Shown: positions 24,243 to 43,476, counted from the first letter of the stretch. The stretch is 64,000 nucleotides of DNA from Solirubrobacteraceae bacterium (GCA_049591655.1 JBAWFG010000042.1:6849-70848), one strand, 5' to 3'. Made by a program: numbers and translations. The notes: generated from the sequence alone by a model not told the origin.

Positions 24243-24254
24243 TTGCATACAGTT
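24243..24254 (-). promoter_or_regulatory. operator-like box, copy a (AACTGTATGCAA on minus strand)
   Basis: Lies in the AT-rich divergent intergenic region between the two FAH genes, 32 nt from GTG 24211 and 78 nt from ATG 24332. Confidence 0.55.
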
Positions 24255-24331
24255 TATCTATCTGTCTATACTTCTTGCCGAGGGAGCCGTTGCGCGGACA
24301 GCGGCCTGACGAGAACGCAAGGGAGTTGGAT

Positions 24332-25210
24332 ATGAAGCTGGTGACGTATGACGACGGGCGGGTCGGCAAGGTCGTCGATGACATCGTCATCGAGCTCAAC
24401 GTGCCCGACATGCGGCGGTACTTCGAGCTGAAGGGGCGGGTGGAGCCGACCGGCCGCCAGACCCCGCTCGCCGAGGTCACGCTGCGGGCGCCGATCATTC
24501 CCAAGAAGTTCTTCCACACCGCGGGCAACTTCCGTGAGCACCACGAGGAGTCAACGCGCGTCAACTGGTCACATCCGGTGCTGCCGTGGATCGTGTTCTT
24601 TCAGAACATCGACGCGATCATCGGACCCGACGAGCCGATCGTCTATCCGGAGGGAATGACCAACGAGCTTGACTACGAGCTCGAACTGGCGGTGATCATC
24701 GGCAAGGCAGGCAAGTTCTTCTCTCCCGAGCAGGCCGAGGAGTACATCGCCGGCTACATCGTCTTCAACGACATCACCGCACGGGACATCCAGCGTGAGG
24801 AGATGAAGTCAGGCGTCTTCTGCCTGTCCAAGGGCATCGACACCTTCTGCCCGATCGGCCCGTGGATCGTCACGCCCGACGAGATCCCCGATCCCCAGGA
24901 CCTGGCGATGGAACTGCGCGTCAACGGCGAGGTCCGCCAGACCTCCCACACCAGCCGCATGTCGGTGACGGTGGCGGAGATCATCAGTCACTACTCGGCG
25001 ATGGGCTACAGCCCCGGGGACATCGTCTCCACCGGCACCGTCGCCGGAGTTGCCGGCTTCAGCGAGGATCCCGCCTCGCTGTATCTCAAACCCGGCGACG
25101 TCGTCGAGGCCGAGGTCAAGGGCGTCGGGGTGCTGCGCAACCCGGTGATCGGCTGGAGCGAGCGCCACCCTGACATCCCGTCGGCCGACACCCAGGCGTC
25201 CCCCGTCTGA
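24332..25210 (+). CDS. fumarylacetoacetate hydrolase (FAH) family protein
   Basis: RBS GGGAG, then MKLVTYDDGRVG. DYELELAVIIG and SPGDIVSTGTVAGVA motifs. Confidence 0.9.
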   Translation: MKLVTYDDGRVGKVVDDIVIELNVPDMRRYFELKGRVEPTGRQTPLAEVTLRAPIIPKKFFHTAGNFREHHEESTRVNWSHPVLPWIVFFQNIDAIIGPDEPIVYPEGMTNELDYELELAVIIGKAGKFFSPEQAEEYIAGYIVFNDITARDIQREEMKSGVFCLSKGIDTFCPIGPWIVTPDEIPDPQDLAMELRVNGEVRQTSHTSRMSVTVAEIISHYSAMGYSPGDIVSTGTVAGVAGFSEDPASLYLKPGDVVEAEVKGVGVLRNPVIGWSERHPDIPSADTQASPV

Positions 25211-25228
25211 CCCGTCGTCTGCACTGAC

Positions 25229-26722
25229 GTGTCAGAGCGGGTCACCGTCCAGACTCCCTCCGGGGGGGTCCGCGGGGTCCGGGAGCGCGAGACCATCGCC
25301 TTCCGCGGAATCCCGTATGCCGTCGCGGACCGGTTTTCGCCGCCGCGCCCCGCGGGGCCGTGGTCCGGTGACCGCGACGCGCTGAGCAGCGGACCGGCCG
25401 CGCCGCAGCCCGACCGGGAGGTGGCGCGGTTCACCCACGGCCCTGCGCCGGATGCCGACGAGTGGGGGTGCCTGAACCTCAACGTGTTCACGCCCCGCCT
25501 CGACGGCCGCCGGCCGGTGATGGTGTGGCTGCACGGCGGCGGGTTCACCGTCGGCTCTCCCGGCGCGACCCTGTATGACGCCACTCGGCTGGCGGCCGCC
25601 GCCGACGCGGTGATCGTCTGCGTCGGCTACCGGCTCGGCAGCCTCGGCTGGCTGTGCCACCCGCGGATGGCCGGCGCCGAGGGCCAGCCGGCCGGCAACT
25701 GGGGGCTCCTTGATCAGATCGAGGCGCTGCGGTGGGTGGGTCGGAGCATCGCCGCGTTCGGCGGCGACCCCGGCAACGTGACCGTCGCCGGTCAATCGGC
25801 GGGCGCGCTGGCCGCGCTTGACATGCTGGCCGCTCCGCAGTCGGCAGGGCTCTTTCACCAGCTGATCGCCCAATCGCCGCCGCTGACCGACGTCGGGGGA
25901 CCCCCGGAGGCCGGCGTGCGTTGGGCCGAGTCGCTGCACCGCGCGCTGTTCGGTGACGCCGGCTTTGACCCGCAGGCACTGCGGGCGGCGCCCGTCGGCG
26001 ACGTGCTGCGCGCCCACGAGGAGTTGCTGACGCTCCCTGAGTACCGGGGTAGCCGCGGCGCGGTCCCGACGATCGACCCGGGCAGCCTGCCCGTCTCGCC
26101 GGGCGCCGACCCACGGCTGCGGCCTGAGATCCCGGTGCTGATCGGGACCGCCGCCCAGGAGGGCACGTTCTTCTTCGGATCCCCATGGCGCCCGGCGCCT
26201 CCGCCACAGCGGATCGGTGATGTCGTCGCCCACCTCGTTCCGGACTCCGATCCCGGCGAGGTCCTCGCCGCCTACGCGCACGGCGCCGCCCAGCGGGGAC
26301 GCTCCACCGACCCCGCCGCGCTGCTCGCCGAGATCGCCACCGACGCGATGTTCGCCAACCCGGTCGCGGACTGGGTGCGTGAGCGCTCTGCGGGGCAGCC
26401 CGGCGCCGGTGCCGGCGACCGTACAGGGTCCGCGGGCGTCTACCACTACCGGGTCGATCACCCGGGTGCCGGTCCCGCGCTCGGCGCCACGCACACCGTC
26501 GAGGTCCCGCTCCTGTTCGGCACCTGGGCCGACGGGGGCGCGGGCGAGCGGCTGGCCGGTCAGGCCGACGGGGCCGAGGCGGTCGCCGCCCAGCTGGTCG
26601 CCGCCTGGGGGGCCTTCCTGCACGCCGGCGACCCCGGCTGGGCGCCAGCTGACCAGCGCGCGGAGCAGGGGCCGGTCGTGTTCGGCGCTGGGACCGCCTC
26701 ACTGGTGACCCCTTCGCGCTGA
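25229..26722 (+). CDS. type-B carboxylesterase/lipase family enzyme
   Basis: GVRGV..FRGIPYA, WLHGGGF, nucleophile GQSAGA. GTG start. Confidence 0.9.
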   Translation: MSERVTVQTPSGGVRGVRERETIAFRGIPYAVADRFSPPRPAGPWSGDRDALSSGPAAPQPDREVARFTHGPAPDADEWGCLNLNVFTPRLDGRRPVMVWLHGGGFTVGSPGATLYDATRLAAAADAVIVCVGYRLGSLGWLCHPRMAGAEGQPAGNWGLLDQIEALRWVGRSIAAFGGDPGNVTVAGQSAGALAALDMLAAPQSAGLFHQLIAQSPPLTDVGGPPEAGVRWAESLHRALFGDAGFDPQALRAAPVGDVLRAHEELLTLPEYRGSRGAVPTIDPGSLPVSPGADPRLRPEIPVLIGTAAQEGTFFFGSPWRPAPPPQRIGDVVAHLVPDSDPGEVLAAYAHGAAQRGRSTDPAALLAEIATDAMFANPVADWVRERSAGQPGAGAGDRTGSAGVYHYRVDHPGAGPALGATHTVEVPLLFGTWADGGAGERLAGQADGAEAVAAQLVAAWGAFLHAGDPGWAPADQRAEQGPVVFGAGTASLVTPSR

Positions 26723-26811
26723 CGACCTGACGCGCAGCCGTAGCGTCTGACCGGTCAGGCTAACTTCACGCCAACATGCGTCCCATAACTCTTACTGGAC
26801 ACACGGATAGG

Positions 26812-26825
26812 AACTGTGTACAGTT
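26812..26825 (+). promoter_or_regulatory. operator-like box, copy b (AACTGTGTACAGTT)
   Basis: Near-perfect palindrome in an AT-rich patch, 38 nt upstream of the livG-like start. Confidence 0.5.
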
Positions 26826-26862
26826 TCGCCACGGCAGTCAGAGAGGGCGCCGCCGAGGAGAG

Positions 26863-27666
26863 ATGAGGACCGTGCCGACCACCCAGACCTTGCTCGATGT
26901 CCGCGCACTGCGCGTCGCCTATGGCGGCGTCGTCGCGGTCTCAGACGTCGACCTGAACGTGCGTGAAGGCGAGGTCTTCGGACTGATCGGCCCCAACGGC
27001 GCCGGAAAGACCTCGATGATCGACGCTCTGACCGGCTACCAGCGCCCCGCCGGTGGAACCGTCGTGTTCGATGGCGTCGACATCACCCGAATGCGGGCTC
27101 ACCGCCGGGCCCGGATGGGGTTGGCGCGCACATTTCAATCCGTGGAGCTGTTCGACGATCTGACCGTCGATGAAAATCTCCTGGTCGCGAGCGAGCGCGC
27201 TGGAGTCGGTCAGACGTTGCGTGACCTCTTCCTCCCTGCCCGTGCGCCTGACCGGACCGTGGTGGACTGGGCAATCGATGTGTGTGACCTCGGTGCGGTC
27301 GTCGACCGGTTGCCGAGCGAGATCTCTCATGGCCAGCGCAAGCTTGTCGGAGTGGGCCGCGCCCTCGCCCAACAGCCTCGGCTCGTCCTGCTCGATGAGC
27401 CGGCGGCGGGACTCGACACCGAGGAGAGCCTTGAGCTGGGTCACCGGTTGCGCGCGCTGCCGGACGAGCACGGCGTCAGCGTGCTCCTCGTCGACCATGA
27501 CATGGGCCTTGTCCTCACGGTGTGTGACCGCGTCATGGTGGTCGACTTCGGAATGACGATCGCCGAGGGTGCACCGTCCGATATCCGGGAGGACCCGCGC
27601 GTCCTGGAGGCCTATCTGGGTAGCCACGGCCGGACACAGGCCAATCCGGTCGGGGGCACGGCATGA
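26863..27666 (+). CDS. branched-chain-amino-acid-type (HAAT family) ABC transporter ATP-binding protein, LivG-like
   Basis: Walker A GPNGAGKTS, signature ISHGQRKL, Walker B LVLLDEPAAG. The start could be GTG 26872 (better RBS spacing). Confidence 0.9.
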   Translation: MRTVPTTQTLLDVRALRVAYGGVVAVSDVDLNVREGEVFGLIGPNGAGKTSMIDALTGYQRPAGGTVVFDGVDITRMRAHRRARMGLARTFQSVELFDDLTVDENLLVASERAGVGQTLRDLFLPARAPDRTVVDWAIDVCDLGAVVDRLPSEISHGQRKLVGVGRALAQQPRLVLLDEPAAGLDTEESLELGHRLRALPDEHGVSVLLVDHDMGLVLTVCDRVMVVDFGMTIAEGAPSDIREDPRVLEAYLGSHGRTQANPVGGTA

Positions 27667-28445
27667 CCGCCACGATGCCGGCCGTCACATCCGCCGCGCT
27701 GGAGATCCAGGGTCTGGCCGCCGGTTATTTCGGCAGTCCCGTGATCCGTGACATCACGATCCGTGTGGCCCCGGGCGAGGTTGTGGCGCTGCTCGGACCT
27801 AATGGCGCTGGAAAGACAACGACGCTTGAGACGATCGCCGGCCTGAACAAGCCAATGGCGGGAACGATCTCGGTGCACGGCTCGGACGTCGGCTCTCGCC
27901 CGACTCATCTGCTGGCGCGGGAGGGGTTGGCGCTCGTGCCCGAGGGCCGCGCTCTGTTCCCTGGCCTGACCGTCCGTGAGCACCTCAGACTGGCCCGGTC
28001 CAAGGACGGCGTCGGTCAGCGTGAGCTGTTGGAGATGCTGCCCGAGCTGCAGAAATGCCTCGATCGCCGGGCGGGGCTGCTCTCCGGCGGTGAGCAGCAG
28101 ATGCTCGCCGTTGGCCGCGCGCTGGTCAGCCGTCCGCGGCTCCTGCTCGTCGACGAGATGAGCCTGGGCCTCGCGCCGGTGATCGTCGAGCGGCTGCTGC
28201 CGATCCTGCGGCGCGTGGCAAACGATTTCGGCACCGGCGTGCTGTTCGTCGAACAGCATGTTGCCCTCGCGCTCGAGGTCGCCGATCGAGCGTACGTACT
28301 CACCCACGGACGGATCGTTCTGGAGGGTCCGGCCGAGCAACTGCAGGCGGACCGAAAGCTGATCGCCGCGAGCTATCTCGGCGAGGCAGTCACCTACAGC
28401 CCCGAGCAGCACGCCATCACGTCAACCACCCAAAGGACCAACTGA
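27663..28445 (+). CDS. HAAT-family ABC transporter ATP-binding protein, LivF-like
   Basis: GPNGAGKTT, LSGGEQQML, LLLVDEMS. ATGA overlap with the preceding gene. Confidence 0.9.
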   Translation: MTATMPAVTSAALEIQGLAAGYFGSPVIRDITIRVAPGEVVALLGPNGAGKTTTLETIAGLNKPMAGTISVHGSDVGSRPTHLLAREGLALVPEGRALFPGLTVREHLRLARSKDGVGQRELLEMLPELQKCLDRRAGLLSGGEQQMLAVGRALVSRPRLLLVDEMSLGLAPVIVERLLPILRRVANDFGTGVLFVEQHVALALEVADRAYVLTHGRIVLEGPAEQLQADRKLIAASYLGEAVTYSPEQHAITSTTQRTN

Positions 28446-29719
28446 TGAGATCACTCCGTAAGCCGTTCGCCGCTGCGGCGGTGGTCGGCGCTGCCGCGCT
28501 GGCCGTCGCCGGATGCGGGAGCAGCAGCTCCTCGAGCTCGTCGACCGGCTCGTCGTCAGCTTCGACATCGACAGCCTCGAACGCGGCGAACACGAGTCTC
28601 GGAACGGTGCACAAGGCGACCGGGACGCCCTACGTCTTCGGACTGATCAACGATGAGACCGGACCGGTCACCTTCCCAGAGGCGCGGCAGGCCGAGATTG
28701 CAGCCGCCAGCTACGTCAACAACTACATGGGCGGCATCAACGGCCACCCGATCCAGCTGGCCGACTGCATCGGCGACACGACGGCGCCGACGAGCGCCCG
28801 CTGCGCCAACGAGCTCGTCGCAAAGCATCCGATGGCGATCCTCGGAGCAGCCGACACGGGCACGCCGGCTGCGGAGACGGTGTACGCGCGGGCAGGTCTC
28901 GCCTACCTCGGAGGCATCCCGTTCACCCCGGTCGAGCAGAACGCGCCGAACTCGGTCCAGTTCTGGTCGATCAGCCTCGGCGATAACGCCGCCGCCTCGG
29001 TGTACGCGGCCAAGTCGCTCGGCGCCAAGAGCGCCGATGTCCTCTACTTCGACAACTCGCAGGGCAAGGTCGCCGGGCTCGGCGTCATCCCGCCGGTGAT
29101 GAAGGCCGCGGGCATCACCAAGGTCAAGACGGTGGGTATTCCGCCGACGACGCCGGATCCGTCCTCCGTCGTCGCGACCGTCATCGCCGACCATCCCGAC
29201 GTCGTCTACGTCGATATCCCCAACAACTGCGGCGTCGTGCTCAAGGACCTCAAGAGCCTCGGCTACACCGGCAAGATCGTCGGGATCGACCCGTGCACCT
29301 CGCCGCCGGCCATCAGCTCCTCGGCCGGAGCTGCCCAGGGCATGTACGTCGCCACCCCGTTCCAGATCGGCCTGCCGCAGTTCAACACATTCGTTACCGC
29401 GCTCAAGAAGTATGGGGCGCCAGGAACTGCGATCGACGGGGTCTCCGAGGCGGGTTTCGCCACCGTCCTCAACGTCCGCAACGCGCTCAACACAATCAAG
29501 GGAACGCCGACGACCAAGACCATCCTGGCGGCCTTCAAAACGGGTTCAAATCACCCCAACTACATGTCACATCCCTACACCTGCGACGGACAGCAGGTCG
29601 CCAAGGCAGTGTCGGTCTGCGACGACCACTACCTGATCGCTCAGGTGAACGGGACGCAGCTCGTCGTCGCCCACCCGAACGCATGGGTCACCTCGAAGGG
29701 CTACTTCAAGGGCCTCTAG
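28445..29719 (+). CDS. Liv-type (type I periplasmic-binding fold) substrate-binding lipoprotein
   Basis: Lipobox LAVAGCGS followed by a Ser-rich linker. Size and pattern fit LivK/aromatic-acid binding proteins. Confidence 0.85.
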   Translation: MRSLRKPFAAAAVVGAAALAVAGCGSSSSSSSSTGSSSASTSTASNAANTSLGTVHKATGTPYVFGLINDETGPVTFPEARQAEIAAASYVNNYMGGINGHPIQLADCIGDTTAPTSARCANELVAKHPMAILGAADTGTPAAETVYARAGLAYLGGIPFTPVEQNAPNSVQFWSISLGDNAAASVYAAKSLGAKSADVLYFDNSQGKVAGLGVIPPVMKAAGITKVKTVGIPPTTPDPSSVVATVIADHPDVVYVDIPNNCGVVLKDLKSLGYTGKIVGIDPCTSPPAISSSAGAAQGMYVATPFQIGLPQFNTFVTALKKYGAPGTAIDGVSEAGFATVLNVRNALNTIKGTPTTKTILAAFKTGSNHPNYMSHPYTCDGQQVAKAVSVCDDHYLIAQVNGTQLVVAHPNAWVTSKGYFKGL

Positions 29720-29735
29720 CCGCGACCTGAAAGCA

Positions 29736-29766
29736 GCGGGCCCGCTCGGACGGCGAGCGGGCCCGC
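29736..29766 (+). other. intercistronic perfect stem-loop inside the ABC operon
   Basis: GCGGGCCCGCTC-GGACGGC-GAGCGGGCCCGC, a 12-bp perfect stem with a 7-nt loop, between the binding-protein and permease genes. No U-tract. Confidence 0.6.
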
Positions 29767-29785
29767 ATCACCTCTCCGAGCGCAC

Positions 29786-31828
29786 ATGTCCACCTACCTC
29801 CTCTTCCTGATCCTCGGCCTCGGGTCTGGTGCTACCTATGCGATCCTCGGCCTGGGACTCGTCCTCAAGTACCGCTCCAGCGGCGTCGTGGACTTCGCGC
29901 ACGGCGCGGTGGCGATGTGGATCGCCTACGTCTTCGTCAACCTGCGCACCCAGGGGACGCTGCCGCTCCCATGGATCGTGATTCCCCACCAGATCACGGT
30001 CGCCTCAACCGGGATGAGCGCGGGCCCGGCGATCGCCATTGCACTCGTGTACGCCGCGTTGCTTGGCGGCGTCCTGTACCTCCTCGTGTACCGGCCGCTG
30101 CGGTTCGCGGCGCCACTCACGCGGATCTGCGCGTCGGTCGGCGTGATGCTGTTCTTCGAGGCGATCGCGGTCCTGAACTTCGGCACCGAGTCAAAGACGA
30201 CGCCGACGATCCTGCCGAGCACCTCGATCACGCTCAGCGGCATCACCTTCCCGAGTGACCGGATCTTCTTTGCCGGGATCGTGCTCGCCAGCGCGATCGT
30301 GCTGTCGCTCGTCTACCGGTACACCCGGTTCGGCCTGGCCACCCGCGCGGGTGCGGAGAACGACCGGGGGGCGGCGCTGATCGGCATCTCGGCCAACCGG
30401 GTCGCGCTCGCCAACTACGTGATCGCCACGGTTCTGGCCGGCGTGGCAGGGATCTTGATTGCGCCGATCGCCAACCTCGATCCGACGTCATACACGCTGT
30501 TCATCGTGCCCGCGCTCGGCGTGGCGCTCGTCGGTCGCTTCGAGTCCTTCTGGATCGTCGCGGTGGCCGGCCTGCTGCTGGGGATGCTCCAGTCGGAGAT
30601 CATCAAGTTCCAGACCTTCAGCTGGTTCCCGCAGGGCAACGTCGGCGACGCGCTCCCGTTCATCCTCATCATCGTGACGATGGCGCTGCGCGCCCGTAGC
30701 CCCCTGGCGCGCGGCGAGACCGTGGCGCAGCGCAACCCCACCGTGGCTCGGCCCGGCAACCCGCTCATGAGCGCCGCGTTCTGTGTCGCCGCCGGTGCGG
30801 TGCTGTTGTTCCTCCTCCAGGGATCGCTGCGCAACGCGTTCATCTCGTCGATGACCTTCACCTGCGTGGCACTCTCGCTGGTGTTGCTCACCGGATACGT
30901 CGGGCAGGTGTCCCTGGCGCAGATGACGTTTGCCGGCGTCGGCGGCTTCATGCTCGGACACATCTCGCACGGGTGGGGGATCGGTTTCCCGTTCTCGTTG
31001 ATCATCGCCGGGCTCTGCGCGGTCCCCATCGGACTTCTCATCGGGCTGCCCGCGTTGCGACTGCGTGGCGTCAACCTGGCGGTGGTGACACTGGGAGCGG
31101 CGTTCACCGCCGATGCGCTGATCTTCAATAGTCAGGGCTTCGCCGGCGGGCTCGACGGACTGCCGATCAAGGCGCCCCACCTGCTGGGTCTCAACCTGTC
31201 GATCAGCCAGGGCCACGATTACCCAACGATCATCTTCGGAGTGCTCGTTCTCCTGGTGGTGACCCTGATGGGGCTGCTCGTGGCGCGGCTGCGCCGCGGC
31301 GCAGCCGGCCGGATGCTGCTTGCCGTGCGCTCCAATGAGCGGGCCGCCGCATCGGTCGGCATCAACGTCCCTCAGGCCAAGCTGCTCGCGTTTGCGATCG
31401 CCGCGTTCATCGCGGGCATCGGGGGAGCGCTCACCGGCTACCAGCAGGGCACCCTGACCGCGGACGGCTTTTCCACCTTCGTCTCGCTGGGACTGCTGGC
31501 GGTCGTCTATGTGGCCGGCATCGGGCGCATCTCCGGTGCCGTCTTTGCGGGGATCATGATGGCGTCGATCGGTCTCTTCGTCACCTTCCTCGACGAGCAG
31601 TTCGGGATCGGCAAGTACCAGACGATCGTCGCCGGCGTCGCTCTCGTCGTCACCGCGATCGCCAACCCCGACGGCGTCATGAGCACCAGTACCGGCAAGG
31701 GACCGGCGGTCGCCTTCTTCGCGCTACGAGATGCGCTGCTCGCTCGTCTGCGCCCGGGGGGTGCGACAGAAGCGGATGTTCCTGCGGGTGACGTCCCGCC
31801 CGCCATCGAGCATCCGCGCCACGTCTAA
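29786..31828 (+). CDS. fused LivH-LivM type ABC permease (both membrane domains in one 680-aa polypeptide)
   Basis: The N-terminal half is LivH-like (LGLGSGATYAILGLGLVL). The C-terminal half is LivM-like (LLTGYVGQVSLAQMTFAGVGGF). No stop or frame change between the halves. Confidence 0.85.
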   Translation: MSTYLLFLILGLGSGATYAILGLGLVLKYRSSGVVDFAHGAVAMWIAYVFVNLRTQGTLPLPWIVIPHQITVASTGMSAGPAIAIALVYAALLGGVLYLLVYRPLRFAAPLTRICASVGVMLFFEAIAVLNFGTESKTTPTILPSTSITLSGITFPSDRIFFAGIVLASAIVLSLVYRYTRFGLATRAGAENDRGAALIGISANRVALANYVIATVLAGVAGILIAPIANLDPTSYTLFIVPALGVALVGRFESFWIVAVAGLLLGMLQSEIIKFQTFSWFPQGNVGDALPFILIIVTMALRARSPLARGETVAQRNPTVARPGNPLMSAAFCVAAGAVLLFLLQGSLRNAFISSMTFTCVALSLVLLTGYVGQVSLAQMTFAGVGGFMLGHISHGWGIGFPFSLIIAGLCAVPIGLLIGLPALRLRGVNLAVVTLGAAFTADALIFNSQGFAGGLDGLPIKAPHLLGLNLSISQGHDYPTIIFGVLVLLVVTLMGLLVARLRRGAAGRMLLAVRSNERAAASVGINVPQAKLLAFAIAAFIAGIGGALTGYQQGTLTADGFSTFVSLGLLAVVYVAGIGRISGAVFAGIMMASIGLFVTFLDEQFGIGKYQTIVAGVALVVTAIANPDGVMSTSTGKGPAVAFFALRDALLARLRPGGATEADVPAGDVPPAIEHPRHV

Positions 31829-31844
31829 CCAGAGCAGGAGAGCC

Positions 31845-33026: not shown

Positions 33027-33034
33027 CTCAGCTC

Positions 33035-33060
33035 ACCCGCCGGGGTCAGCCCCCGGCGGG
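33035..33060. terminator. hairpin between convergent P450 and dienelactone hydrolase genes
   Basis: ACCCGCCGGGG-TCAG-CCCCGGCGGGT, an 11-bp stem. The right arm overlaps the last codons of the minus-strand gene. Confidence 0.4.
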
Positions 33061-34381: not shown

Positions 34382-34387
34382 GGCCGC

Positions 34388-34423: not shown

Positions 34424-34433
34424 CTCGACCGAG

Positions 34434-34844
34434 ATGGAGGGGACGGGGTTCGATCACGTGGGGCTCTCGGTGGCCGACCTGGACGCGAGCGAGGCGTTCC
34501 TGACCGCCGCCTTCGACTTCGCCGCCGAGTTTCGCTTCACGCTTGATCCCCACCCGGTCGCCGGGGTCATGCTGCGCCATCCATCCGGGTTCCGGTTGGA
34601 GCTGCTGCGCCACGCGGCGTCCCATCCGGGCATCCAGGCGACGACGCCGATCGAGGCCCTCGCCACCCGCGGCTACGGCCACTTTGCCCTCGCCGCGCCG
34701 GACATCGACCCGGTGTTCACGCGCGCGGTCGCCGCCGGCGCCCGGGCGCTGCGTGAGCCGGGTCCCTCTCCGGAGCCGGGCGTGCGGTTCGCGTTCCTCG
34801 CCGATCCGGAGGGCAATCTCATCGAGCTCGTGGAGCGGCGCTGA
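34434..34844 (+). CDS. VOC family protein (glyoxalase-like)
   Basis: MEGTGFDHVGLSVADLDASEAFL and GYGHFAL. No RBS, consistent with a leaderless or near-leaderless transcript. Confidence 0.8.
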   Translation: MEGTGFDHVGLSVADLDASEAFLTAAFDFAAEFRFTLDPHPVAGVMLRHPSGFRLELLRHAASHPGIQATTPIEALATRGYGHFALAAPDIDPVFTRAVAAGARALREPGPSPEPGVRFAFLADPEGNLIELVERR

Positions 34845-35611: not shown

Positions 35612-36984
35612 ACGGCGAGCTCATCTGGCGCGGGGACGGCGCCTACGAGGAGGCCCGGGTCGGGCGCGTGTTCAACGCGCGGCGGCCGGACCGGTTCCCG
35701 GCCGCCGTGCTGTTCGCCGAAGCCGAGTCCGACGTGGTGGACGGAGTGCGGCTGGCGCGCGAGCGCGGCCTGCGGGTCTCGATCCGCTCCGGCGGCCATT
35801 CCTGGGCGGCGTGGAGCGTGCGTGAGGATGCGCTGCTCATCGATCTCGGGCGCATCCATGAGATGACGTATGACCCGGCGACCGGGATCGCCACCGCCAG
35901 TCCGGCGGTCAAGGGCGGCGCTGAGCTGACGCCGTTTCTCACCGGCCACGGACGCGCGTTTCCCGGCGGGCACTGCCCGAGCGTCGGCATCGGCGGCTTC
36001 CTGCTCCAGGGTGGCCAGGGCTGGAACAGCCGTAAGCACGGCTGGGCCTGCGAGAGTGTGATCGCGATCGACGTGGTCACCGCCGATGGCCGGCTCGTGC
36101 ATGCCGACGAGCACGAAAACGCCGATCTGCTGTGGGCGGCCCGCGGCGCCGGTCCGGGCTTCTTCGGCGTGGTCACCCGGTTTCACCTGCGCACGTATCC
36201 ATTGCCGCAGTCGATGACCCACGACACCTGGACGTTCGAGCTCGACGACCTCGAGCCGCTGCTGACCTGGATCGATGACCTGCTCCCGTCGCTTGACCGC
36301 GTCGTCGAGCCGGTGATCGCCGCCACCCGTCTGCCCCGCCCCGAGGGGCCGCCGGTGCTGCTCCTGCACACGACCGCGATGTGCGACGCCGCCGAACAGG
36401 CCGAGCGGGTGCTCGCCCCACTCGCCGCCTGTCCGCTCGCCGACCGCGCGCTCGCCCACGAGCGGGGCCCGACGTCCATCGAGGCCGAGAACGAGGCCCA
36501 GGCGCAGCAGAACCCCGAGGGTTACCGCTACGGAGTGGACTGCACATGGACCGACGCGCGCGCCGCCGAACTGGCCCCGCGCCTGCGCGCGCTGTGGTCG
36601 CAGTTGCCGACCGAGCACTCGTTCTCTATCTGGTATGGCTGGGCCCCGTCGGGCCCGCTGCCGGATATGGCGTTCTCGGTCCAGGGCCGCGCGTACATCG
36701 CCACGTATGCCATCTGGTCAGATCCCGCCGAGGACGAGCGCCACCGCTCGTGGGTGGTGGATCACACTCAGCGGCTCGCCGAGCTGGGCATCGGCGTCTA
36801 CCTCGGTGACACCGACTTCACCCGGCGTCCTGACCGGTTCCTCTCCGACGCCGGGTTCCGCCGGCTGGAGCAATTGCGGGATCGGTGGGACCCCGAGGGG
36901 CGGTTTCACTCCTACCTGATCGCCGACGGCGCGACGCTCAACGCAGAACCAGTCCGCCGTCCGGGCACGACGTCTGCCCGGTGA
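35608..36984 (+). CDS. FAD-binding (FAD_binding_4 / BBE-like) oxidoreductase
   Basis: RSGGHSW, GIGGFLLQGGQGW and C-terminal RDRWDPEGRFH (BBE-like tail). Confidence 0.9.
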   Translation: MNGELIWRGDGAYEEARVGRVFNARRPDRFPAAVLFAEAESDVVDGVRLARERGLRVSIRSGGHSWAAWSVREDALLIDLGRIHEMTYDPATGIATASPAVKGGAELTPFLTGHGRAFPGGHCPSVGIGGFLLQGGQGWNSRKHGWACESVIAIDVVTADGRLVHADEHENADLLWAARGAGPGFFGVVTRFHLRTYPLPQSMTHDTWTFELDDLEPLLTWIDDLLPSLDRVVEPVIAATRLPRPEGPPVLLLHTTAMCDAAEQAERVLAPLAACPLADRALAHERGPTSIEAENEAQAQQNPEGYRYGVDCTWTDARAAELAPRLRALWSQLPTEHSFSIWYGWAPSGPLPDMAFSVQGRAYIATYAIWSDPAEDERHRSWVVDHTQRLAELGIGVYLGDTDFTRRPDRFLSDAGFRRLEQLRDRWDPEGRFHSYLIADGATLNAEPVRRPGTTSAR

Positions 36985-37008
36985 GGGCACATCTGCACGC
37001 AAGTGAGC

Positions 37009-37024
37009 TTACTGTATACAATTG
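37009..37024 (+). promoter_or_regulatory. operator-like box, copy d (TTACTGTATACAATTG)
   Basis: AT-rich patch 27 nt upstream of ATG 37051, just before RBS GAGGAGAG. Confidence 0.55.
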
Positions 37025-37050
37025 TCGAAACGACGAGACTGAGGAGAGTC

Positions 37051-38073
37051 ATGTCCTTCCACGTGGAATCCCCGGCGCCGGTGCGTGAGCTTCCCGGCGA
37101 GACCGTGCCCTATTACCTCGCCGACGGCGACGGGCGAGCGCACCTGCTGCTCGGCCAGGTCGGCCGCGCGCTGGCGGGTACGGAGGAGACCGGCGGCGCG
37201 ATGTCGGTCATGACCGCGGTGGGGCCGGCCGGTGGACCGATCCCCCTGCACCGCCACGATGCCGAGCACGACTACTTCTTCTGCGTCCGGGGCGCGATCC
37301 AGGTGTGGGCCGACGGCGAGAGCCGCATCCTCTATCCCGGCGACGTGGCGAGCGTGCCCGCCGGCGTCCTGCACGCCTATCAGTTCCACGGCCACTTCAG
37401 CCAGTTCATGGGACCGATCGCTCCGGCGGGATGGGATCGGTTCTTCGACCTCACCGGGACGCCGTACGCCGGGCCGGCCTATCCCCAGGTCGATGACAGC
37501 CCGCCGCCGTTTGCCAAGTTCGGCGAGGCCGAGGCGCGATTTGCCATGAAGTACTTCCCCCAGGAGCCCTACGGCGAGCTGACCACCGGGCCCGACGCAT
37601 CGCTTCCCGGAACGGCGGTCCCGTATTTCCTGCGGGCCGGGGAGGGACCACGCCACGTGCTGTTCGGCCAGGTCGCCTATCAGCTGATGACCGGCGCCGA
37701 GAGTGGTGGCGCCCTCGGGATGACGGTCATCGAGGGACCGCGGGGCCCCGCCGCGCCGCTGCACGTCCACGAGCGCACCTACGAGGCGATCTACTGCCTG
37801 GAGGGGCGCCTGCGGGTCACGATCGACGGCGACGAGCACCTGCTGACGCGTGGTGACTTCGCCTCCATCCCAGCCGGCGCCGAGCACACCTATGCGATGG
37901 AGTCACACCTCACCCGCTTTGCCGTCATGTATGGGCCTGCGGGCCCCGAGCGCTTCTACGAGCTCGCCGGTCGGGTGGCCGAGCACCGGATCTTCCCGGA
38001 GCACGGCGAACCCGCCGACTCCGACCGCCTGGCGGCGGCCGCGGCCGAGCTCGACATCACGTTCGTCGGCTGA
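37051..38073 (+). CDS. bicupin dioxygenase, quercetin 2,3-dioxygenase-like
   Basis: Two cupin modules, each with the pattern VPY(Y/F)L..G(D/E)G....L.GQV.....G.E.GGA......GP.G...PLH.H (PLHRHDAEHD and PLHVHERTYE). Confidence 0.8.
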   Translation: MSFHVESPAPVRELPGETVPYYLADGDGRAHLLLGQVGRALAGTEETGGAMSVMTAVGPAGGPIPLHRHDAEHDYFFCVRGAIQVWADGESRILYPGDVASVPAGVLHAYQFHGHFSQFMGPIAPAGWDRFFDLTGTPYAGPAYPQVDDSPPPFAKFGEAEARFAMKYFPQEPYGELTTGPDASLPGTAVPYFLRAGEGPRHVLFGQVAYQLMTGAESGGALGMTVIEGPRGPAAPLHVHERTYEAIYCLEGRLRVTIDGDEHLLTRGDFASIPAGAEHTYAMESHLTRFAVMYGPAGPERFYELAGRVAEHRIFPEHGEPADSDRLAAAAAELDITFVG

Positions 38074-38082
38074 GGCGGCGTC

Positions 38083-39327
38083 ATGTCATCGCTCAAGGTT
38101 CTGATCGCCGGCGGCGGGATCGCCGGTCTCACTCTCGCCCAGGGACTGCGCCGAGAGGGCATCGCCTGTGAGGTGTTCGAGCGTGACCCGCTCGACACGT
38201 GGCGCACCGGGTACCTGCTCAACCTCGACGTCGAAGGCGACGGCGGGCTCGCGGCGTGCCTCCCGGCGGCGCTGTACGAGCTGTTCGTGCGCGCCTGCGG
38301 CGAGACGATGACGGGCCACGACCAGTCGGTCGTCGTCGATCCCCAGGGCAATCAGATCACCTCGATGCCGCACGTCGGCGCGCCCGCGACCGGTGAACGT
38401 CCCCCGACGAACATCGACCGGCGGACGTTTCGCCAGATCCTCCTGGCCGGGCTTGACGACGTCGTGCACCACGGCGTCGAGGTCGTCGACGTGACGCCGT
38501 CAGACAGCTCGGTCACGGTGCATCTGGCCGACGGTGAGACGGTGGAGGGTGACGTGCTGGTGGCCGCCGACGGCGTCGGTTCGGCGATCCGCCGCCGCCT
38601 CATGCCCGAGGTGGCGATCATCCCATCGCCGGTTGGCGCGCTCGGCCTGTTCGGCCGCTCCCCGCTCACCGACGAGGTCGCAGCGGAGCTGCCTCCGGCG
38701 ATCTGGAATGCCGGGTTTGCCATCGTCAGCGACGGGCGGGGGACGATGCTCGGTGTCGGGCACTGGCGCCCGCGGCAGCCCGCGTCGCAGGCCGCGGCGC
38801 AGCTCGGCATCAGCGCGAGCTTCGACGACGCCCATCCGTACGTGATGCTCAACGGCGCCATTCCTCCGGGCGTGGAGGTGCCCCCGCCGGCGGACTGGGA
38901 TGACGACACCCCGCGCCGCATGCACGAGACGATGCTCACCGCGGTTGCGCAGTGGCACCCGGCGATCCGCCGGCTCGTCGAGAACATCGAGCTCGCCACC
39001 CTGTTCTCCCATCCGTTCCGGCGCCTGGACCCGACGCCCCCCTGGCCGGCCTCGCGGGTCACCTACCTCGGCGACGCGATCAACGCGATGCTGCCGACCC
39101 TGGGCAAGGGCGCCAACATGTCGATGCGCAACGCCGGTGTCCTGCGTGACGCGCTCGTCGCGGCCGACCGGGGCGAGCGCACGCTGCTGGACACGATCGG
39201 CGGCTACGAGGACGACATGCGGGCGGCGACCTACCCGCTGATGGACATGGCCTCGGATCACAATCGGTTCGGCGGGGGTGGCCTGCGCGGTCCGTCTGAC
39301 CGCCCGTCTTCGGAGGTGCCGGCATGA
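38083..39327 (+). CDS. FAD-dependent aromatic-ring monooxygenase (group A flavoprotein hydroxylase)
   Basis: VLIAGGGIAGLTLA dinucleotide fold, LVAADGVGSAIR (DG motif), YLGDAINAMLPTLGKGAN (GD motif). Confidence 0.9.
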   Translation: MSSLKVLIAGGGIAGLTLAQGLRREGIACEVFERDPLDTWRTGYLLNLDVEGDGGLAACLPAALYELFVRACGETMTGHDQSVVVDPQGNQITSMPHVGAPATGERPPTNIDRRTFRQILLAGLDDVVHHGVEVVDVTPSDSSVTVHLADGETVEGDVLVAADGVGSAIRRRLMPEVAIIPSPVGALGLFGRSPLTDEVAAELPPAIWNAGFAIVSDGRGTMLGVGHWRPRQPASQAAAQLGISASFDDAHPYVMLNGAIPPGVEVPPPADWDDDTPRRMHETMLTAVAQWHPAIRRLVENIELATLFSHPFRRLDPTPPWPASRVTYLGDAINAMLPTLGKGANMSMRNAGVLRDALVAADRGERTLLDTIGGYEDDMRAATYPLMDMASDHNRFGGGGLRGPSDRPSSEVPA

Positions 39328-40262
39328 GAGTGCTCGGACTGAGCGCGGGCAATCCCGGCGGCAGCGCCGAGATCCTGTTGACGATCGCGCTGCGGGCCGC
39401 CGCCGGCCACGGCGCGCAGACGGCGCTCGTGCGCCTGGACGACCTGGTGCTGCCGACGCGGCCGATCGGCCCCGCCGACGACGCCGCCGCCGATGACGGC
39501 GCCTGGCTGTGGGATCAGGTCATGGACGCCGACGGGCTGATTGTCGCCTCACCGATCTACTCGCGCACGGTGCCGGGCAAGCTCAAGCTCGTCGCCGATC
39601 GCCTGTCGGGGCCGGCCGCCGACGTCGCGTTTGCCGAGGCCTACCGCCGGATGCTCGACGCGGGGCAGACTCCGCCGGTCGCGTTTCCCTATGACGAGCG
39701 GGTCTTCCGGCCGCGCGTTGCCGGGCTGATCGCCGTCGGCGGGGCGCTGACCAGCCAGTGGAAGACGCTGGCCCTGCCGCTCATGCACCAGATGATGTTC
39801 TCCTCGCACATCGCGGTGGCCGATCAACTGCTCGTCGGTGGCGCCGGGATGCCGCGCGCGGTCGTCCTCGACGAGCCGGCGCTGGCCGCCGCGGCGCGCG
39901 TGGGGGAGAGCGTCGGGTCCCAGCTGGGGCACGGGTTCGATGCCGTCCAATACCGGGGCGATCTCGGCCTGTGCCCGCTGTGTCACCTGTCGGTGGTCAG
40001 CGTCGACGGCGATCAGGTGGAGTGCGCGACGTGTGGCGCCGCCGGGCGCCTGGAGGTCACAGACGGCGCGGCCGCGATCCGGTTCGATGACCCGGCCGGC
40101 CTGGAACGCTCGATCATCTCGATGACCGAGAAGCGCGCCCACTTCCACGAGGTCCAGCAGACCGCCGGCGTGCAGGGCCCGCAGGCTGAGGAGATCGCAC
40201 AGCGGGCGGCGCGCTATGCGGCCGACGAGAGTCGCATCACGCCCGCGGTCGCCCACTCCTAA
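39324..40262 (+). CDS. NAD(P)H-dependent FMN reductase-like flavoprotein with internal CxxC...CxxC zinc-ribbon and C-terminal extension
   Basis: MRVLGLSAGNPGGSAE and SPIYSRTVPGKLK (FMN_red-like). CPLCH...CATCG at 39972-40034. ATGA overlap with the monooxygenase gene. Confidence 0.75.
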   Translation: MRVLGLSAGNPGGSAEILLTIALRAAAGHGAQTALVRLDDLVLPTRPIGPADDAAADDGAWLWDQVMDADGLIVASPIYSRTVPGKLKLVADRLSGPAADVAFAEAYRRMLDAGQTPPVAFPYDERVFRPRVAGLIAVGGALTSQWKTLALPLMHQMMFSSHIAVADQLLVGGAGMPRAVVLDEPALAAAARVGESVGSQLGHGFDAVQYRGDLGLCPLCHLSVVSVDGDQVECATCGAAGRLEVTDGAAAIRFDDPAGLERSIISMTEKRAHFHEVQQTAGVQGPQAEEIAQRAARYAADESRITPAVAHS

Positions 40263-40273
40263 GCGCCCGCCGG

Positions 40274-41056
40274 TCAGGGCCGATCAGGCCGCCGGGCGAC
40301 CGCGTAGCGGAACAGGTTGTGCATCGCCACCCGGCCGTCGGCTGCAGTGAACGGAATCACGGCCGTGGTCAGCGCCGCGCGCGCCGCCGGCTCGCCGGCC
40401 GCGTCGATCGCCATCGCCCCGCCGCCGGAGGCGAGCACCGCCCGGACGGCGCGGTCGACATCGTCGTGGGCCCACACGACCGGCACCTCACCGTCGGTGA
40501 CGGGCATCAGGCCACCGCTCTGCAGCAGCTGCCGCAGTCCGCTGGGCTCTGACAGGGCGTAGGGGAGATGCTGCGCGGCGGCCGGACCCGCCGCCCGCAA
40601 CGGCTCGAGCGCCAGGTGCAGGGCGGTTGACTCGTTGCGCTGTGGCTCGGCGAACGTCGTGGCCGCCACCAGCCCACCCCGTCGCACGACCCGGGCCGCC
40701 TCGGTCACCGCCGCGGGCGGATCATCGGCGAACGGGAAGGCGTTGAAGCCGACGACGACGTCAAAGCTCTCGTCGGCGAACGGCAGCGTGTCCATCCCGC
40801 CGACCAGGAGCGTGGCGGCGGGGACGCGCTCCTGGGCGATCTCCAGCAGTTCGGGGGTGATGTCAAGGCCGGTCACGGTCGCGCCGCGGCGCGCCGCCAT
40901 CGCCAGCGCGTAGCCCGAGCCGCAGCCGACGTCGAGCAGGGCGGTCCCCGGCCCGCAGCCCACGGCGTCGAGCACCCGCTCAAACAGCACGGCGTTTGAC
41001 GGCTCGGCCAGTTCGGCCCACTCCCGGGGCCGCCGGCCCCAATGCTCGGAGCTCAT
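40274..41056 (-). CDS. class I SAM-dependent methyltransferase
   Basis: Motif I LLDVGCGSG. The ATG at 41056 is chosen because the longer track ORF would run through the box-containing intergenic region. Confidence 0.85.
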   Translation of the reverse strand: MSSEHWGRRPREWAELAEPSNAVLFERVLDAVGCGPGTALLDVGCGSGYALAMAARRGATVTGLDITPELLEIAQERVPAATLLVGGMDTLPFADESFDVVVGFNAFPFADDPPAAVTEAARVVRRGGLVAATTFAEPQRNESTALHLALEPLRAAGPAAAQHLPYALSEPSGLRQLLQSGGLMPVTDGEVPVVWAHDDVDRAVRAVLASGGGAMAIDAAGEPAARAALTTAVIPFTAADGRVAMHNLFRYAVARRPDRP

Positions 41057-41066
41057 GATGAGAAGA

Positions 41067-41100
41067 TTACTGCATACAGTTAGAGAACCTGTGTAGAGTT
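41067..41100 (+). promoter_or_regulatory. operator-like boxes, copy e (TTACTGCATACAGTTA plus degenerate AACCTGTGTAGAGTT)
   Basis: Fills the 57-nt divergent intergenic region between the methyltransferase and GlcG-like genes. Confidence 0.55.
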
Positions 41101-41113
41101 TACCGGCACCGCC

Positions 41114-42067
41114 ATGAGTCACCCTCACGACATCTCCCTGAGCGACGCGCGCGCGCTGATCGCCCGCGCGGTCGATAAGGCGGCCCACATCGGGGCCCGC
41201 GGGGCGTTCGCCGTCGTCGGGGGCTCCGGAACGCTCGTGTCGGCTTCACGCATGGATCGCGGCGGCGCCGGCGGCATGGCCCGTGCCCGCTCCAAAGCGT
41301 GGATCTCGGGCACCCAGCAGATCCCGAGCACCGAGCATCACCTGCGCATGGCGACGCTGCCGCCCCCGATCGCCGCCGGGTTTGTCGCCTGCTCGCCGGA
41401 GGCCAACTTCCCCGGCGCCGGCGGCATGCCGATCCGTGACGAGTCCGATCCCGTCCGCCCGGTGATCGGCGGGTTCAGCGCGTCGGGCGCGACCGTCGGC
41501 CCATTCGTCGACATCCCGGGGATCGACCGGCGGATGCTGATCGCCGAGGGCAAGCCGGCCAACTCCGAGGATCTGATCGTCCTCTGGGCACTCGGGCTGC
41601 CCTACGAGGGCCAGCATGGTGACGACGAGAAGCGCTGGCTCGACGCGTTCGGGGCGCTCCCTGACGAGGAGGGTCTCGGCTACGGCGACCCGCCGCCGGC
41701 CGACCAGCCGGAACGTGAGTGGGCGCTCGGGCTGGCCGACGCGGCGATCGCCGAGGCCGAACGCCGTTCGCTTCCGATCGCGGTCGCGGTCGTCGATGTG
41801 CGCGGCGACCCGATCCAGCTGGACACGATGGACGGCGCGCCGTCCGCCGCCCCGTTCGTCGCCGAGGCGCTGGCCGCGGGAGCCGCCACCTTCCAGGCCC
41901 CGAGCGCAGAGATCGATCCGGTCCTCACCGCCGTGCTCCCCTACCGCGTCCTGACCGTCCCCGGTGGGCTGCCCGTCTGGGCCGGCGAACGGGTGGTGGC
42001 CGGCCTCGGCATCGCCGGCGCGGACACCGCGGTGTGTGATCAGATCGCCGCGTCCGTGCTCCAATGA
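41114..42067 (+). CDS. tandem GlcG/HbpS-like (DUF336) heme-binding-type protein
   Basis: Two DUF336-like halves: AFAVVGGSGTLVSASRMDRGG... and IAVAVVDVRGDPIQLDTMDGA...GGLPV...VVAGLGIAG. Confidence 0.75.
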   Translation: MSHPHDISLSDARALIARAVDKAAHIGARGAFAVVGGSGTLVSASRMDRGGAGGMARARSKAWISGTQQIPSTEHHLRMATLPPPIAAGFVACSPEANFPGAGGMPIRDESDPVRPVIGGFSASGATVGPFVDIPGIDRRMLIAEGKPANSEDLIVLWALGLPYEGQHGDDEKRWLDAFGALPDEEGLGYGDPPPADQPEREWALGLADAAIAEAERRSLPIAVAVVDVRGDPIQLDTMDGAPSAAPFVAEALAAGAATFQAPSAEIDPVLTAVLPYRVLTVPGGLPVWAGERVVAGLGIAGADTAVCDQIAASVLQ

Positions 42068-42981
42068 GGATCTGCATCGTCGGCTGTGGTGCCATCGGCG
42101 GCCTGTACGCCGCCCACCTCGCCACGCTGCCCGACATCGCGGTCTGGGGGTATGACGTCTCAGCCGAACATGTGGCGGCGATCGCCGAGCACGGGCTGCG
42201 GCTGACCGGCGCCATCGAGCTGACCGCGAGGGTGCAGGCGCGCACCGATCCGAGCGAGATCCCCCCCTGCGAGCTGGGGATCGTGGCCACCAAGGGGACC
42301 GCGACCGCGCCGGCGATCGCCGCGACCGCGGCCGTGTTCGCCGACGGCGCGGTCTGCAGCGTGCAGAACGGAATCGGCAACGAGGAGGTGATCGCCGACC
42401 ACGTGCCGCGCGTGATGCGGGGCGTGACCCTGCCGGCGGGGCGCATCGCCGCGCCGGGGGTCATCCACGTCGACGCGCCGGGCCCAACCTGGATCGGGCC
42501 GTTTGAGCCCCAGCCGGCGTCCGCCCCGGAGATTGAGCAGCTCGCCGAGCTGCTCAACCGCAGCGGGCTCGAGACCCGCGCGGTCGCCGACGCGCGCGGC
42601 GCCCAGTGGACCAAGCTGCTGTTCAACGCCTCCACCAACCCACTGTGCGCGCTCACCGGCCTGACCCACGGTCAGCTGTGCGACTACCCGCCGACCCGGC
42701 GCCTGGTCGGCGAGCTGCTGGCGGAGGGCGAGGCGGTGGTGTCGGCGCTCGGCATCGCGTTGGACAGCGATCCCGGCGCGCTCGTCGACGAGGCCGCGCG
42801 GGTCAATCCCCATCACCGCCCGAGCATGCTGCAGGATGTCGCTGCTCGGCGGGCCACCGAGATCGCGACACTCAATGGCGGCATCGTCGCGGCCGCGCGC
42901 CCGACCGGCATCCCGACCCCGCAGCACGAGGCGGTCGTCGATCTCATTCGCGGTATGGAGCGCAGCTGGAGCGAGCAATGA
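42064..42981 (+). CDS. 2-dehydropantoate 2-reductase (ketopantoate reductase/ApbA) family oxidoreductase
   Basis: [14 protein letters not shown]-terminus, SVQNG, and SMLQD near the C-terminus. ATGA overlap with the preceding gene. Confidence 0.85.
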
Positions 42982-43475
42982 CCGCGCTCACTGCAGGTCC
43001 GATCCCCGGCTTCAACGGCGAGGTCGTGCGTCCCGGCGACGTCGCCTATGACGGTGCTCGAACGGTGTGGAACGCAATGCACGACCGCCATCCCGCGCTG
43101 ATCGCGCGTTGCCGGTCGGCCGCCGACGTCGCTGCCGCCATCGCCTACGGGCGGGGGCACGGGTTGCCGATCGCCGTCCGGGGCGGCGGCCACAGCATGC
43201 CGGGCCACAGCGTCTGTGACGGCGGCATCGTGATCGACCTGCGGGCGCTCAACGCGGTGACCGTCGATCCGGTGGCGCGGCGGGCCACCGTCGGGGGCGG
43301 GGCGCTGCTCGGCGAGCTTGACCGGGCCACGCAGGCCCACGGCATGGTCGTCCCCGCCGGCGTGGTCTCGCACACCGGGACGAGCTGGCCCCAGCGGTCA
43401 GCTCGCTTGACGTCTTCCGGCTCAACCAGAACATTCGGCCGTAGTGTGGACGGAAAGCGAAACTGTATGCAATAA
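42978..43475 (+). pseudogene. truncated FAD_binding_4 oxidoreductase (N-terminal ~134 aa only)
   Basis: Family-like up to ...[13 protein letters not shown]...[13 protein letters not shown]. At nt ~43380 the expected GxxGxxLGGGxG continuation is replaced by unrelated residues and a stop. A full-length paralogue type (458 aa) is at 35608..36984. Confidence 0.65.
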
Positions 43476-43476
43476 T
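43461..43476 (+). promoter_or_regulatory. operator-like box, copy f (AACTGTATGCAATAAT) overlapping a probable near-leaderless promoter
   Basis: Ends 10 nt before ATG 43486. TGCAATAAT resembles an extended -10 element. No RBS before the cupin gene. Confidence 0.55.

Follow-up and report, generated by a model that had tools for sequence, protein, structure and literature searches.

A pseudo-palindromic sequence element, here called the box, lies in all six promoter regions of a catabolic island in DNA of a Solirubrobacteraceae bacterium (GCA_049591655.1 JBAWFG010000042.1:6849-70848; this 64,000-nucleotide stretch, analysed whole, is referred to as the window), and the GntR-type repressor encoded in the island most likely binds there, as predicted from the evidence below. 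The island has nine transcription units reading off six regulatory gaps, labelled a to f, and the candidate repressor gene is the last of the operon behind box f. Each gap carries the box as a pair of sites, which together with the regulator are as follows.

24243..24254, minus strand: box a, main copy, AACTGTATGCAA on the minus strand; the plus-strand TTGCAT inside it is the predicted -35 of the FAH2 gene, and the minus reading faces FAH1
24261..24272, plus strand: box a, second copy, TCTGTCTATACT, 19 bp from the main copy and holding the predicted -10 of FAH2, TATACT
26794..26805, plus strand: upstream half-box of region b, ACTGGACACACG, holding the -35-like hexamer TGGACA
26812..26825, unstranded: box b, AACTGTGTACAGTT, a 14-bp palindrome before the ABC transporter operon, its right half TACAGT being the predicted -10
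34389..34400, plus strand: box c1, AACTGTAGACGA, overlapping the -35 of the VOC_b promoter
34408..34423, plus strand: box c2, AACTGTATGCAATACT, with the extended -10 TGcAATACT 10 nt ahead of the VOC_b ATG (34434)
36992..37003, plus strand: upstream half-box of region d, TCTGCACGCAAG
37009..37024, unstranded: box d, TTACTGTATACAATTG, before the gene for a quercetinase-like bicupin, with TACAAT as predicted -10
41067..41082, unstranded: box e1, TTACTGCATACAGTTA, between the methyltransferase (minus strand) and GlcG-like (plus strand) genes, overlapping the -35 of the rightward promoter
41086..41100, plus strand: box e2, AACCTGTGTAGAGTT, with the predicted -10 TAGAGT inside, 14 nt before the GlcG-like ATG at 41114
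43443..43454, plus strand: upstream half-box of region f, AGTGTGGACGGA, holding the -35-like TGGACG
43461..43476, plus strand: box f, AACTGTATGCAATAAT, 9 nt before the cupin ATG at 43486, heading the cupin-SDR-SDR-GntR operon
45358..46086, plus strand: GntR-family regulator with FCD effector domain, the candidate cognate repressor

An earlier note on this DNA had placed the box at all six promoter gaps and, on a non-exhaustive visual scan, had not seen it elsewhere in the window; this is borne out: the sequences it quoted are all present at the coordinates it gave, and the pattern ACTGTATRCA, allowing at most one mismatch, yields nine strand-hits at six sites (24244, 26813, 34409, 37011, 41069 and 43462), with no match outside the six gaps in the 64-kb window. 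The window-wide expectation for this pattern is 0.91, and none of 100 shuffles attained nine. The inter-operon gaps are, as had been described, AT-rich islands in GC-rich DNA (GC dips of 0.59–0.66 compared to a background of 0.70–0.75), and since AT-rich gaps could by themselves raise such counts we also shuffled only the six gaps (480 bp, GC 0.45–0.60), which gave an expectation of 0.045 strand-hits against the nine observed and thus rules out chance or AT-richness as the origin of the boxes. With a position weight matrix (PWM) built from orthologous sites, the six regions score 17–34 bits and the top match outside the island 10.3 bits, the remaining intergenic gaps of the window being without a box in the PWM scan; the pattern ACTGTNNNNCA, with a spacing unlike that of the box, had no relevant match. 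The top outside match (TAATCTGCAAGCAGTAAC, 4559–4576, minus strand) lies far from the island in the gap between open reading frames (ORFs) 3091–4248 and 4722–5531, and may be due to chance. Distances from box to start codon, estimated earlier at 7–78 nt, are about 6–77 nt with start codons verified against orthologues, and gaps a, c and e do lie between divergent genes.

Conservation was assessed in related loci found by two scans, one anchored on the GntR gene (one genome per species; 42 loci, 804 kb, GntR identity 73–91%) and one anchored on FAH2, giving 122 contexts together (L001–L122). The 42 GntR-anchored loci all come from Solirubrobacterales, Conexibacteraceae or unclassified Actinomycetota metagenome-assembled genomes (MAGs), and as one of them (L028) is too short to judge, 41 are assessable; the box is found ahead of the GntR-containing operon in 40 of these. 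In 38 of the 42 loci the cupin-SDR-SDR-GntR operon is headed by AAACTGTATGCAATAAT, some 1.9 kb before the GntR orthologue. Rearranged contexts retain the association: the box immediately precedes GntR in L052/L054, L071, L075 and L012 (where the GntR orthologue stands alone, with box-like elements right before its ATG), and in L036 a rearranged operon ending in GntR has a diverged pair of boxes ahead of it. The earlier note had proposed conservation upstream of orthologous operons as a check on its claim, and the box is indeed kept at orthologous gaps a–f among species whose proteins are 55–88% identical, including the orthologous c, d and e gaps of GntR-anchored loci, while in the FAH2-anchored metagenome scan some 45 contigs have it ahead of FAH2 and some 14 ahead of the ABC operon. 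In all, orthologous positions carry the box in about 41 Solirubrobacterales species and some 45 metagenome contigs.

The 42 loci contain 104 PWM hits compared to about one in shuffles, and among the 35 full-length loci there are 90 hits in the 10 kb upstream of GntR against two in the 10 kb downstream, as would be expected of the shared cis-element of a regulon that the earlier note had taken the box to be. Masking by longest ORF put 39 known gap sites in the coding class, stop-to-stop ORFs running across gaps; from that test we kept the upstream/downstream contrast, the shuffle controls and a tenfold density difference. Three pairs of loci are near-duplicates (L052/L054, L065/L066 and L073/L074). 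Two others, L016 and L023, are different contigs of a single MAG (MFD00125.bin.2.11), whose genome thus appears to have the island, boxes included, in duplicate. In L015 (~13099–13135) and L009 (~6444–6480) an extra pair of boxes, AAAATGTCTACAGTTTG..ATTCTGCACGCAAT, is present downstream of GntR, between a gene for a PobA-like FAD monooxygenase and genes for CoA-transferase A/B and thiolase, which suggests that in some species the regulon may extend to beta-ketoadipate-like (pcaIJF-like) genes that are absent from the island of the window.

The regulator is a protein of 242 aa with matches to Pfam GntR (PF00392, 1.8e-18, a winged helix-turn-helix at residues 9–69) and FCD (PF07729, 2e-22, an all-helical effector/dimerisation domain at residues 79–200), and its gene follows that of SDR3 (stop at 45348) after 9 nt. 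It was described earlier as the only regulator in the island, and no other DNA-binding regulator gene was found between 23.4 and 46.1 kb with Pfam and NCBIfam, the nearest being OmpR-type response regulators beyond 48 kb (Pfam). In the VanR group of these proteins the FCD domain is short, with six helices, and often has three His residues forming a metal site. The best PDB matches of the island protein are 3c7j and 7xp0, followed by 3fms (TM0439), 4p9f (McbR) and 6z74 (Atu1419), of which the latter three have been assigned to the VanR group (PMC7797058), and it appears to resemble regulators of a VanR-like FCD type.

Three observations connect this protein to the box in addition to their co-occurrence. 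Firstly, among FAH2-anchored loci the box is present in 8/8 where the GntR is at least 57% identical to that of the island and in 0/7 where it is a paralogue of 30–37% identity, even at PWM ≥9, while FAH2 itself overlaps in identity between the two sets (73–82% in orthologue loci vs 66–75% in paralogue loci). Six of the seven paralogue loci carry another palindrome upstream of FAH2, TTTGATCAAA or ATTTGCGCAAAT, and the upstream region of L090 is unreadable; this looks like a swap of regulator and operator together at the same FAH2 gene. The loci with the other palindrome are L076, L078, L080 and L084 (upstream of FAH2), and L104 and L105. Secondly, the box consensus AAACTGTA/TACAGTTT contains the core TGTATACA (GT-A-T-AC), which satisfies both the general GntR operator consensus NyGT-Nx-ACNy and its FadR-subfamily form GTM-N0-1-KAC (PMC4494728). 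Thirdly, helix 3 of the island protein (ISRTPLREAL) aligns with ISRTPVREAL of Atu1419 (6z74).

Atu1419 of Agrobacterium fabrum is a VanR-group FCD GntR protein which represses hydroxycinnamic-acid catabolic genes, and it binds a crystallographically defined operator, ATGTATACAT, overlapping -10 boxes, via Arg45, Thr46 and Arg49 of helix 3 (PMC7797058). These contacts, an Arg reading the G of TGT with a Thr and an Arg touching the backbone, are kept as Arg43, Thr44 and Arg47 in the island protein, within the shared helix ISRTPxREAL, and the operator core TGTATACA is identical (ATGTATACAT compared to ACTGTATACAGT here). The two systems are also alike in having sites over -10 boxes, with more than one site possible per promoter region, and in combining a plant-phenolic catabolic cluster with autoregulation, features that are predicted for the island. 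However, the proteins are distantly related (E 1.3e-7, the N-terminal domain alone aligning), Glu34 of Atu1419 is replaced by Gln (Gln32) here, the box in the island is longer with a conserved AAC...GTT flank, and its pairs have a fixed distance of 19 bp whereas Atu1419 sites are 109–190 bp apart. The effector proposed for Atu1419 is methylene-tetrahydrofolate (PMC7797058). More generally, the island shares with FadR-subfamily GntR repressors (FadR, LldR, PdhR, DgoR, ExuR/UxuR, GlcC; PMC4494728) the combination of winged helix-turn-helix and all-helical FCD domain, an AT-rich GT...AC palindrome at the neighbouring catabolic operon, frequent autoregulation and placement between divergent genes; but in most of these GT and AC are separated by 3 nt (TGGTnnnACCA types), compared to GT-AT-AC here, and most respond to sugar acids or acyl-CoA, in contrast to the present 23-kb multi-operon phenolic island in Solirubrobacterales.

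The assignment of the box to the island GntR, which the earlier note had proposed as the autoregulated cognate factor, is supported by these comparisons of loci, paralogues and core sequence. The strongest competitor, which we nevertheless consider unlikely, is that the boxes are operators of an unlinked factor (TetR, MarR, IclR or a GntR paralogue), while the island GntR controls other targets or a subset of the promoters. In Bacillus subtilis the quercetinase operon yxaGH is repressed by the TetR-family proteins LmrA/QdoR (YxaF), which are flavonoid-responsive and bind over the promoter, and whose target, a YxaG-type bicupin quercetin 2,3-dioxygenase, is homologous to the bicupin of the window; this precedent counts for an unlinked factor, although LmrA/QdoR are TetR rather than GntR/FCD proteins, with another operator sequence and a much smaller regulon. 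The view taken here, of 64 kb of one genome and 10–20-kb flanks of relatives, and the single locus (L001) with a GntR orthologue and no box, also leave room for it. Yet an unlinked factor would not readily explain why the box lies upstream of the GntR orthologue in nearly all assessable loci and follows it to rearranged contexts, nor why orthologue and paralogue loci differ completely in having it; the motif agrees with the GntR consensus and not with TetR- or IclR-type boxes; and comparison of flanking genes revealed no other regulator syntenic with the island (the flanking HAD hydrolase, histidine kinase, ALDH and ABC-2 transporter show no synteny in relatives, the OmpR-type response regulators lying outside this comparison).

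The position of the box relative to predicted promoters suggests how the regulator may act. Two 12-mers in register, exactly 19 bp apart, are present in all six regions of the window; the earlier note had noticed a second copy at c and e, where it does occur, but it is not limited to these gaps, a weaker second box being present in all six regions (those at a and f, for example, are new here). Both sub-sites are kept at ≥80% identity in ungapped class consensuses of all six regions, built from the following numbers of distinct sequences.

Region f (n=33): A.TGTaGACGgAT...cAAACTGTATGCAATAaT
Region c (n=15): AACTGTAGACGATT...CAaTCTGTATGCAATACT
Region d (n=24): taCTGCACGCAttTga.a.Aa.TGTATACAAT
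Region b (n=12): CTGGACACAa.gag.aAAAcTGTGTACAGTTt
Region a (n=29): TTGCATACAGtTT....tTCTGTcTAtA.T
Region e (n=5): TTGCATACAGTTTgg..a.CTG.gTAta.TT

Box a is thus kept as TTGCATACAGtTT in 29 distinct FAH2 upstream regions, with tTCTGTcTAtA.T as consensus of its second copy, and the half-boxes of b, d and f as CTGGACACA, CTGCACGCAttTga and A.TGTaGACGgAT in 12, 24 and 33 distinct sequences, respectively. The downstream 12-mer holds a -10-like hexamer (TACAGT, TACAAT, TATACT, TAGAGT) or an extended -10 (TGcAATAAT/TGcAATACT), and the upstream 12-mer a -35-like hexamer (TGGACA, TTGCAT, TGGACG/TAGACG or TGCACG). A consensus promoter scan of 24–44 kb made two calls only, at b (TGGACA-17-TACAGT, 26796–26824) and at f (TGGACG-18-AATAAT with an upstream TG), and hexamers of TAnnnT type occur within the boxes at a, c, d and e. 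The predicted operator thus overlaps predicted core promoter elements, and in the divergent gaps a, c and e the box pair is predicted to be a shared bidirectional promoter-operator cassette. At c, for example, the minus strand reads TTGCAT-18-TACAGT, with TTGCAT within box c2 as predicted -35 and TACAGT within box c1, 8 nt before the VOC_a ATG (34381), as predicted -10 of a leaderless VOC_a; at e the methyltransferase ATG (41056) lies 10 nt from TGCAGTAAT in box e1, in the same geometry as at f.

Across species, -10 hexamer and ATG keep a steady distance (7–13 nt) at c and f while the sequence in between varies, with no Shine-Dalgarno motif conserved there, which supports leaderless or near-leaderless mRNAs and agrees with the earlier reading of these two sites as extended -10 elements close to the start codon. 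Such mRNAs appear to be made from VOC_a, VOC_b, the cupin and the methyltransferase genes. Leaders at a (FAH2), b and d carry Shine-Dalgarno motifs, that at d being GAGGAG followed by the bicupin ATG at 37051.

The same overlap raises the question of whether the box is simply a promoter, i.e. -35, spacer and -10 of the housekeeping or a dedicated alternative sigma factor, reused six times and holding no repressor site. Every box overlaps a predicted hexamer (TACAGT, TACAAT, TATACT, TAGAGT, AATAAT, TTGCAT or TGGACA) and the sub-sites are spaced like -35 and -10 elements. However, promoters are asymmetric, whereas 12 distinct sequences of site b share a symmetric palindrome of 14 bp (AACTGT-GT-ACAGTT), and the sites at d and e likewise form palindromes. 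The best-kept positions (CTGT/ACAG and the AAA/TTT flanks) would fall in the spacer, as does the conserved AAACTGTA, where sigma-70-type promoters make no demand, and the box is oriented one way towards the downstream gene at a and e and the other way at c and f. In addition the island has no sigma-factor gene (Pfam/NCBIfam), and the other gaps of the window lack the box. We therefore regard a pure promoter element as improbable, somewhat more so than an unlinked factor.

A third alternative keeps both site and factor but makes GntR an activator or dual regulator at some promoters. Some FadR-family proteins do activate as well, such as Escherichia coli FadR at fabA; here the upstream sub-site is near the -35, compatible with class II activation, and several -35 hexamers are weak (TGCACG, TAGACG). 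Since the main site lies over the -10 or extended -10 at every promoter, which is the classic position of a repressor, as with Atu1419, a shown repressor, activation seems very improbable, the least likely of the three alternatives. The CRP-like box was ruled out by half-site spacing and gene context, and the SOS box of proteobacterial LexA (CTGT-N8-ACAG), which has the CTGT/ACAG arms in common with the present box, by an arm spacing of 2 nt here compared to 8 nt, the lack of lexA or DNA-repair genes in the island and the confinement of the motif to a catabolic island.

We consider it probable, with good though not full confidence, that the boxes are operators of the island-encoded, autoregulated VanR-like FCD GntR repressor, which would act by occluding the promoters. 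The motif, its restriction to the island, its conservation, its placement on predicted promoters and its co-occurrence with the GntR orthologue are shown, while binding by this protein, a repressing and not an activating role, stoichiometry and effector are inferred; the model may be put as follows. Each gap would present two sites on the palindrome ACTGTA-TACAGT (core TGTATACA), one over the -35 and the other over the -10 or extended -10, and in gaps a, c and e the pair would serve both strands, the box on the -10 of one promoter being that on the -35 of the opposite one. As long as inducer is absent, both sites would be filled by GntR dimers, possibly as a dimer of dimers, and RNA polymerase would be kept from all nine units, including the regulator's own operon and hence with negative autoregulation, until a pathway metabolite frees the promoters of repressor. 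The bicupin being a quercetinase homologue, flavonols or their products are candidate substrates and inducers, and the candidate inducer would be a flavonol or a cleavage product, e.g. a depside, protocatechuate or a phloroglucinol derivative; this substrate class is suggested by the quercetinase homologue together with the carboxylesterase and FAH-family hydrolases, and by the position of the extra box pair near beta-ketoadipate-like genes in L015 and L009.

Several points weigh against this interpretation. The link between factor and site is correlative, and most of the loci are phylogenetically related, so that their counts are not independent events. In L001 (6772–10726), the sole assessable locus without a box, the GntR is 89% identical and yet no site of PWM ≥5 occurs in 20 kb; there SDR2-SDR3-GntR (86–89% identity) lie directly behind an MFS transporter gene and the cupin is missing. 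The recognition helix discriminates only weakly, as SRTPxREAL recurs in many GntR proteins whose operators differ, and some of the conservation is promoter-derived, since parts of the box coincide with promoter hexamers. A centre-to-centre distance of 19 bp is not a whole number of helical turns, and two dimers on the same face of the DNA therefore fit less neatly. Finally, the analysis covers 64 kb of this genome and 10–20-kb flanks of relatives, as noted for the unlinked factor, and further box copies or candidate regulators may lie elsewhere.

The whole island (23378..46086, unstranded) was delimited and annotated from Pfam, NCBIfam and PDB matches and from synteny in the 122 contexts. Its genes are, from left to right, as follows.

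Left end to gap a, minus strand: FAH1, an FAH-family hydrolase
Gap a to gap b: FAH2, an FAH-family hydrolase, and a carboxylesterase
After gap b: LIV-type ABC transporter (two ATPases, binding protein, fused permease) and a P450
Before gap c, minus strand: dienelactone hydrolase (DLH) and VOC_a
Gap c to gap d: VOC_b, an SDR and an EncM/BBE-like FAD oxidase (35608–36984)
After gap d: quercetinase-like bicupin (37051..38073, plus strand), FAD monooxygenase and FMN reductase, then the methyltransferase (minus strand) before gap e
Gap e to gap f: GlcG/HbpS-like protein, KPR-like reductase and a decayed second FAD oxidase
After gap f: cupin, SDR, SDR and the GntR/FCD regulator

The bicupin is a homologue of quercetin 2,3-dioxygenase of the YxaG type and may have this activity; over its full length it resembles characterised bicupin quercetinases, matching the PDB entries 2h0v, 1y3t (B. 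subtilis YxaG) and 8hfb at E about 1e-58, aligned in two stretches. An initial Pfam-based guess of gentisate 1,2-dioxygenase was rejected, as there was no match to an NCBIfam gentisate dioxygenase and the PDB search gave quercetinases.

The second FAD-linked oxidase gene (42969–43441, plus strand), between the KPR-like gene and box f, is only a remnant, which keeps the N-terminal ~150 codons and the last 11 codons with ~310 codons deleted, and its FAD_binding_4 domain is truncated in Pfam; its counterpart is intact in L002, L009, L029, L033, L034 and L038. The FMN-reductase-like protein (39324–40262, plus strand, 312 aa) has an FMN_red match confined to residues 1–141, its C-terminal ~170 aa having no match in Pfam or NCBIfam. 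Outside the island, a stop-to-stop frame at 8644–11429 (plus strand) joins FAA_hydrolase and RraA-like aldolase domains, as one fused or two adjacent genes, and is followed by DsrC-like and DsrE-like genes.

The arrangement is of a kind already well known from the textbook, namely a local FCD-GntR repressor, promoter-overlapping GT..AC palindromes and autoregulation, and the core equals that of Atu1419. The earlier note knew of no description of this motif or regulon, and a full-text literature search of the motif strings likewise found no report of it as an operator; nor did full-text searching find literature linking a quercetinase with a GntR regulator, or a study of Solirubrobacterales regulators. 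The present model offers an initial, well-supported description of a regulon and its operator in Solirubrobacterales, a mostly uncultured lineage which is abundant in soil and is not known to have any characterised transcription factor. It joins nine transcription units as one predicted co-regulated unit, which may aid pathway discovery, and the quercetinase homologue, carboxylesterase, FAH-family hydrolases and, in some species, pcaIJF-like extension point to catabolism of flavonols or related phenolics. The pair of operator and repressor could also be built into a biosensor.

More tentatively, the island may encode an uncharacterised flavonol or plant-phenolic pathway which is switched as a unit by the VanR-like GntR, via a reusable 31-bp double-operator cassette with cooperative binding of a dimer of dimers, such that back-to-back leaderless promoters are silenced simultaneously. 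We regard this fuller picture as possible but doubtful. If true, promoter and operator would be combined in a compact bidirectional design, the regulator would be a new sensor of flavonoids or depsides, and the pathway would be widespread in the uncultured Solirubrobacterales of soil and peat.

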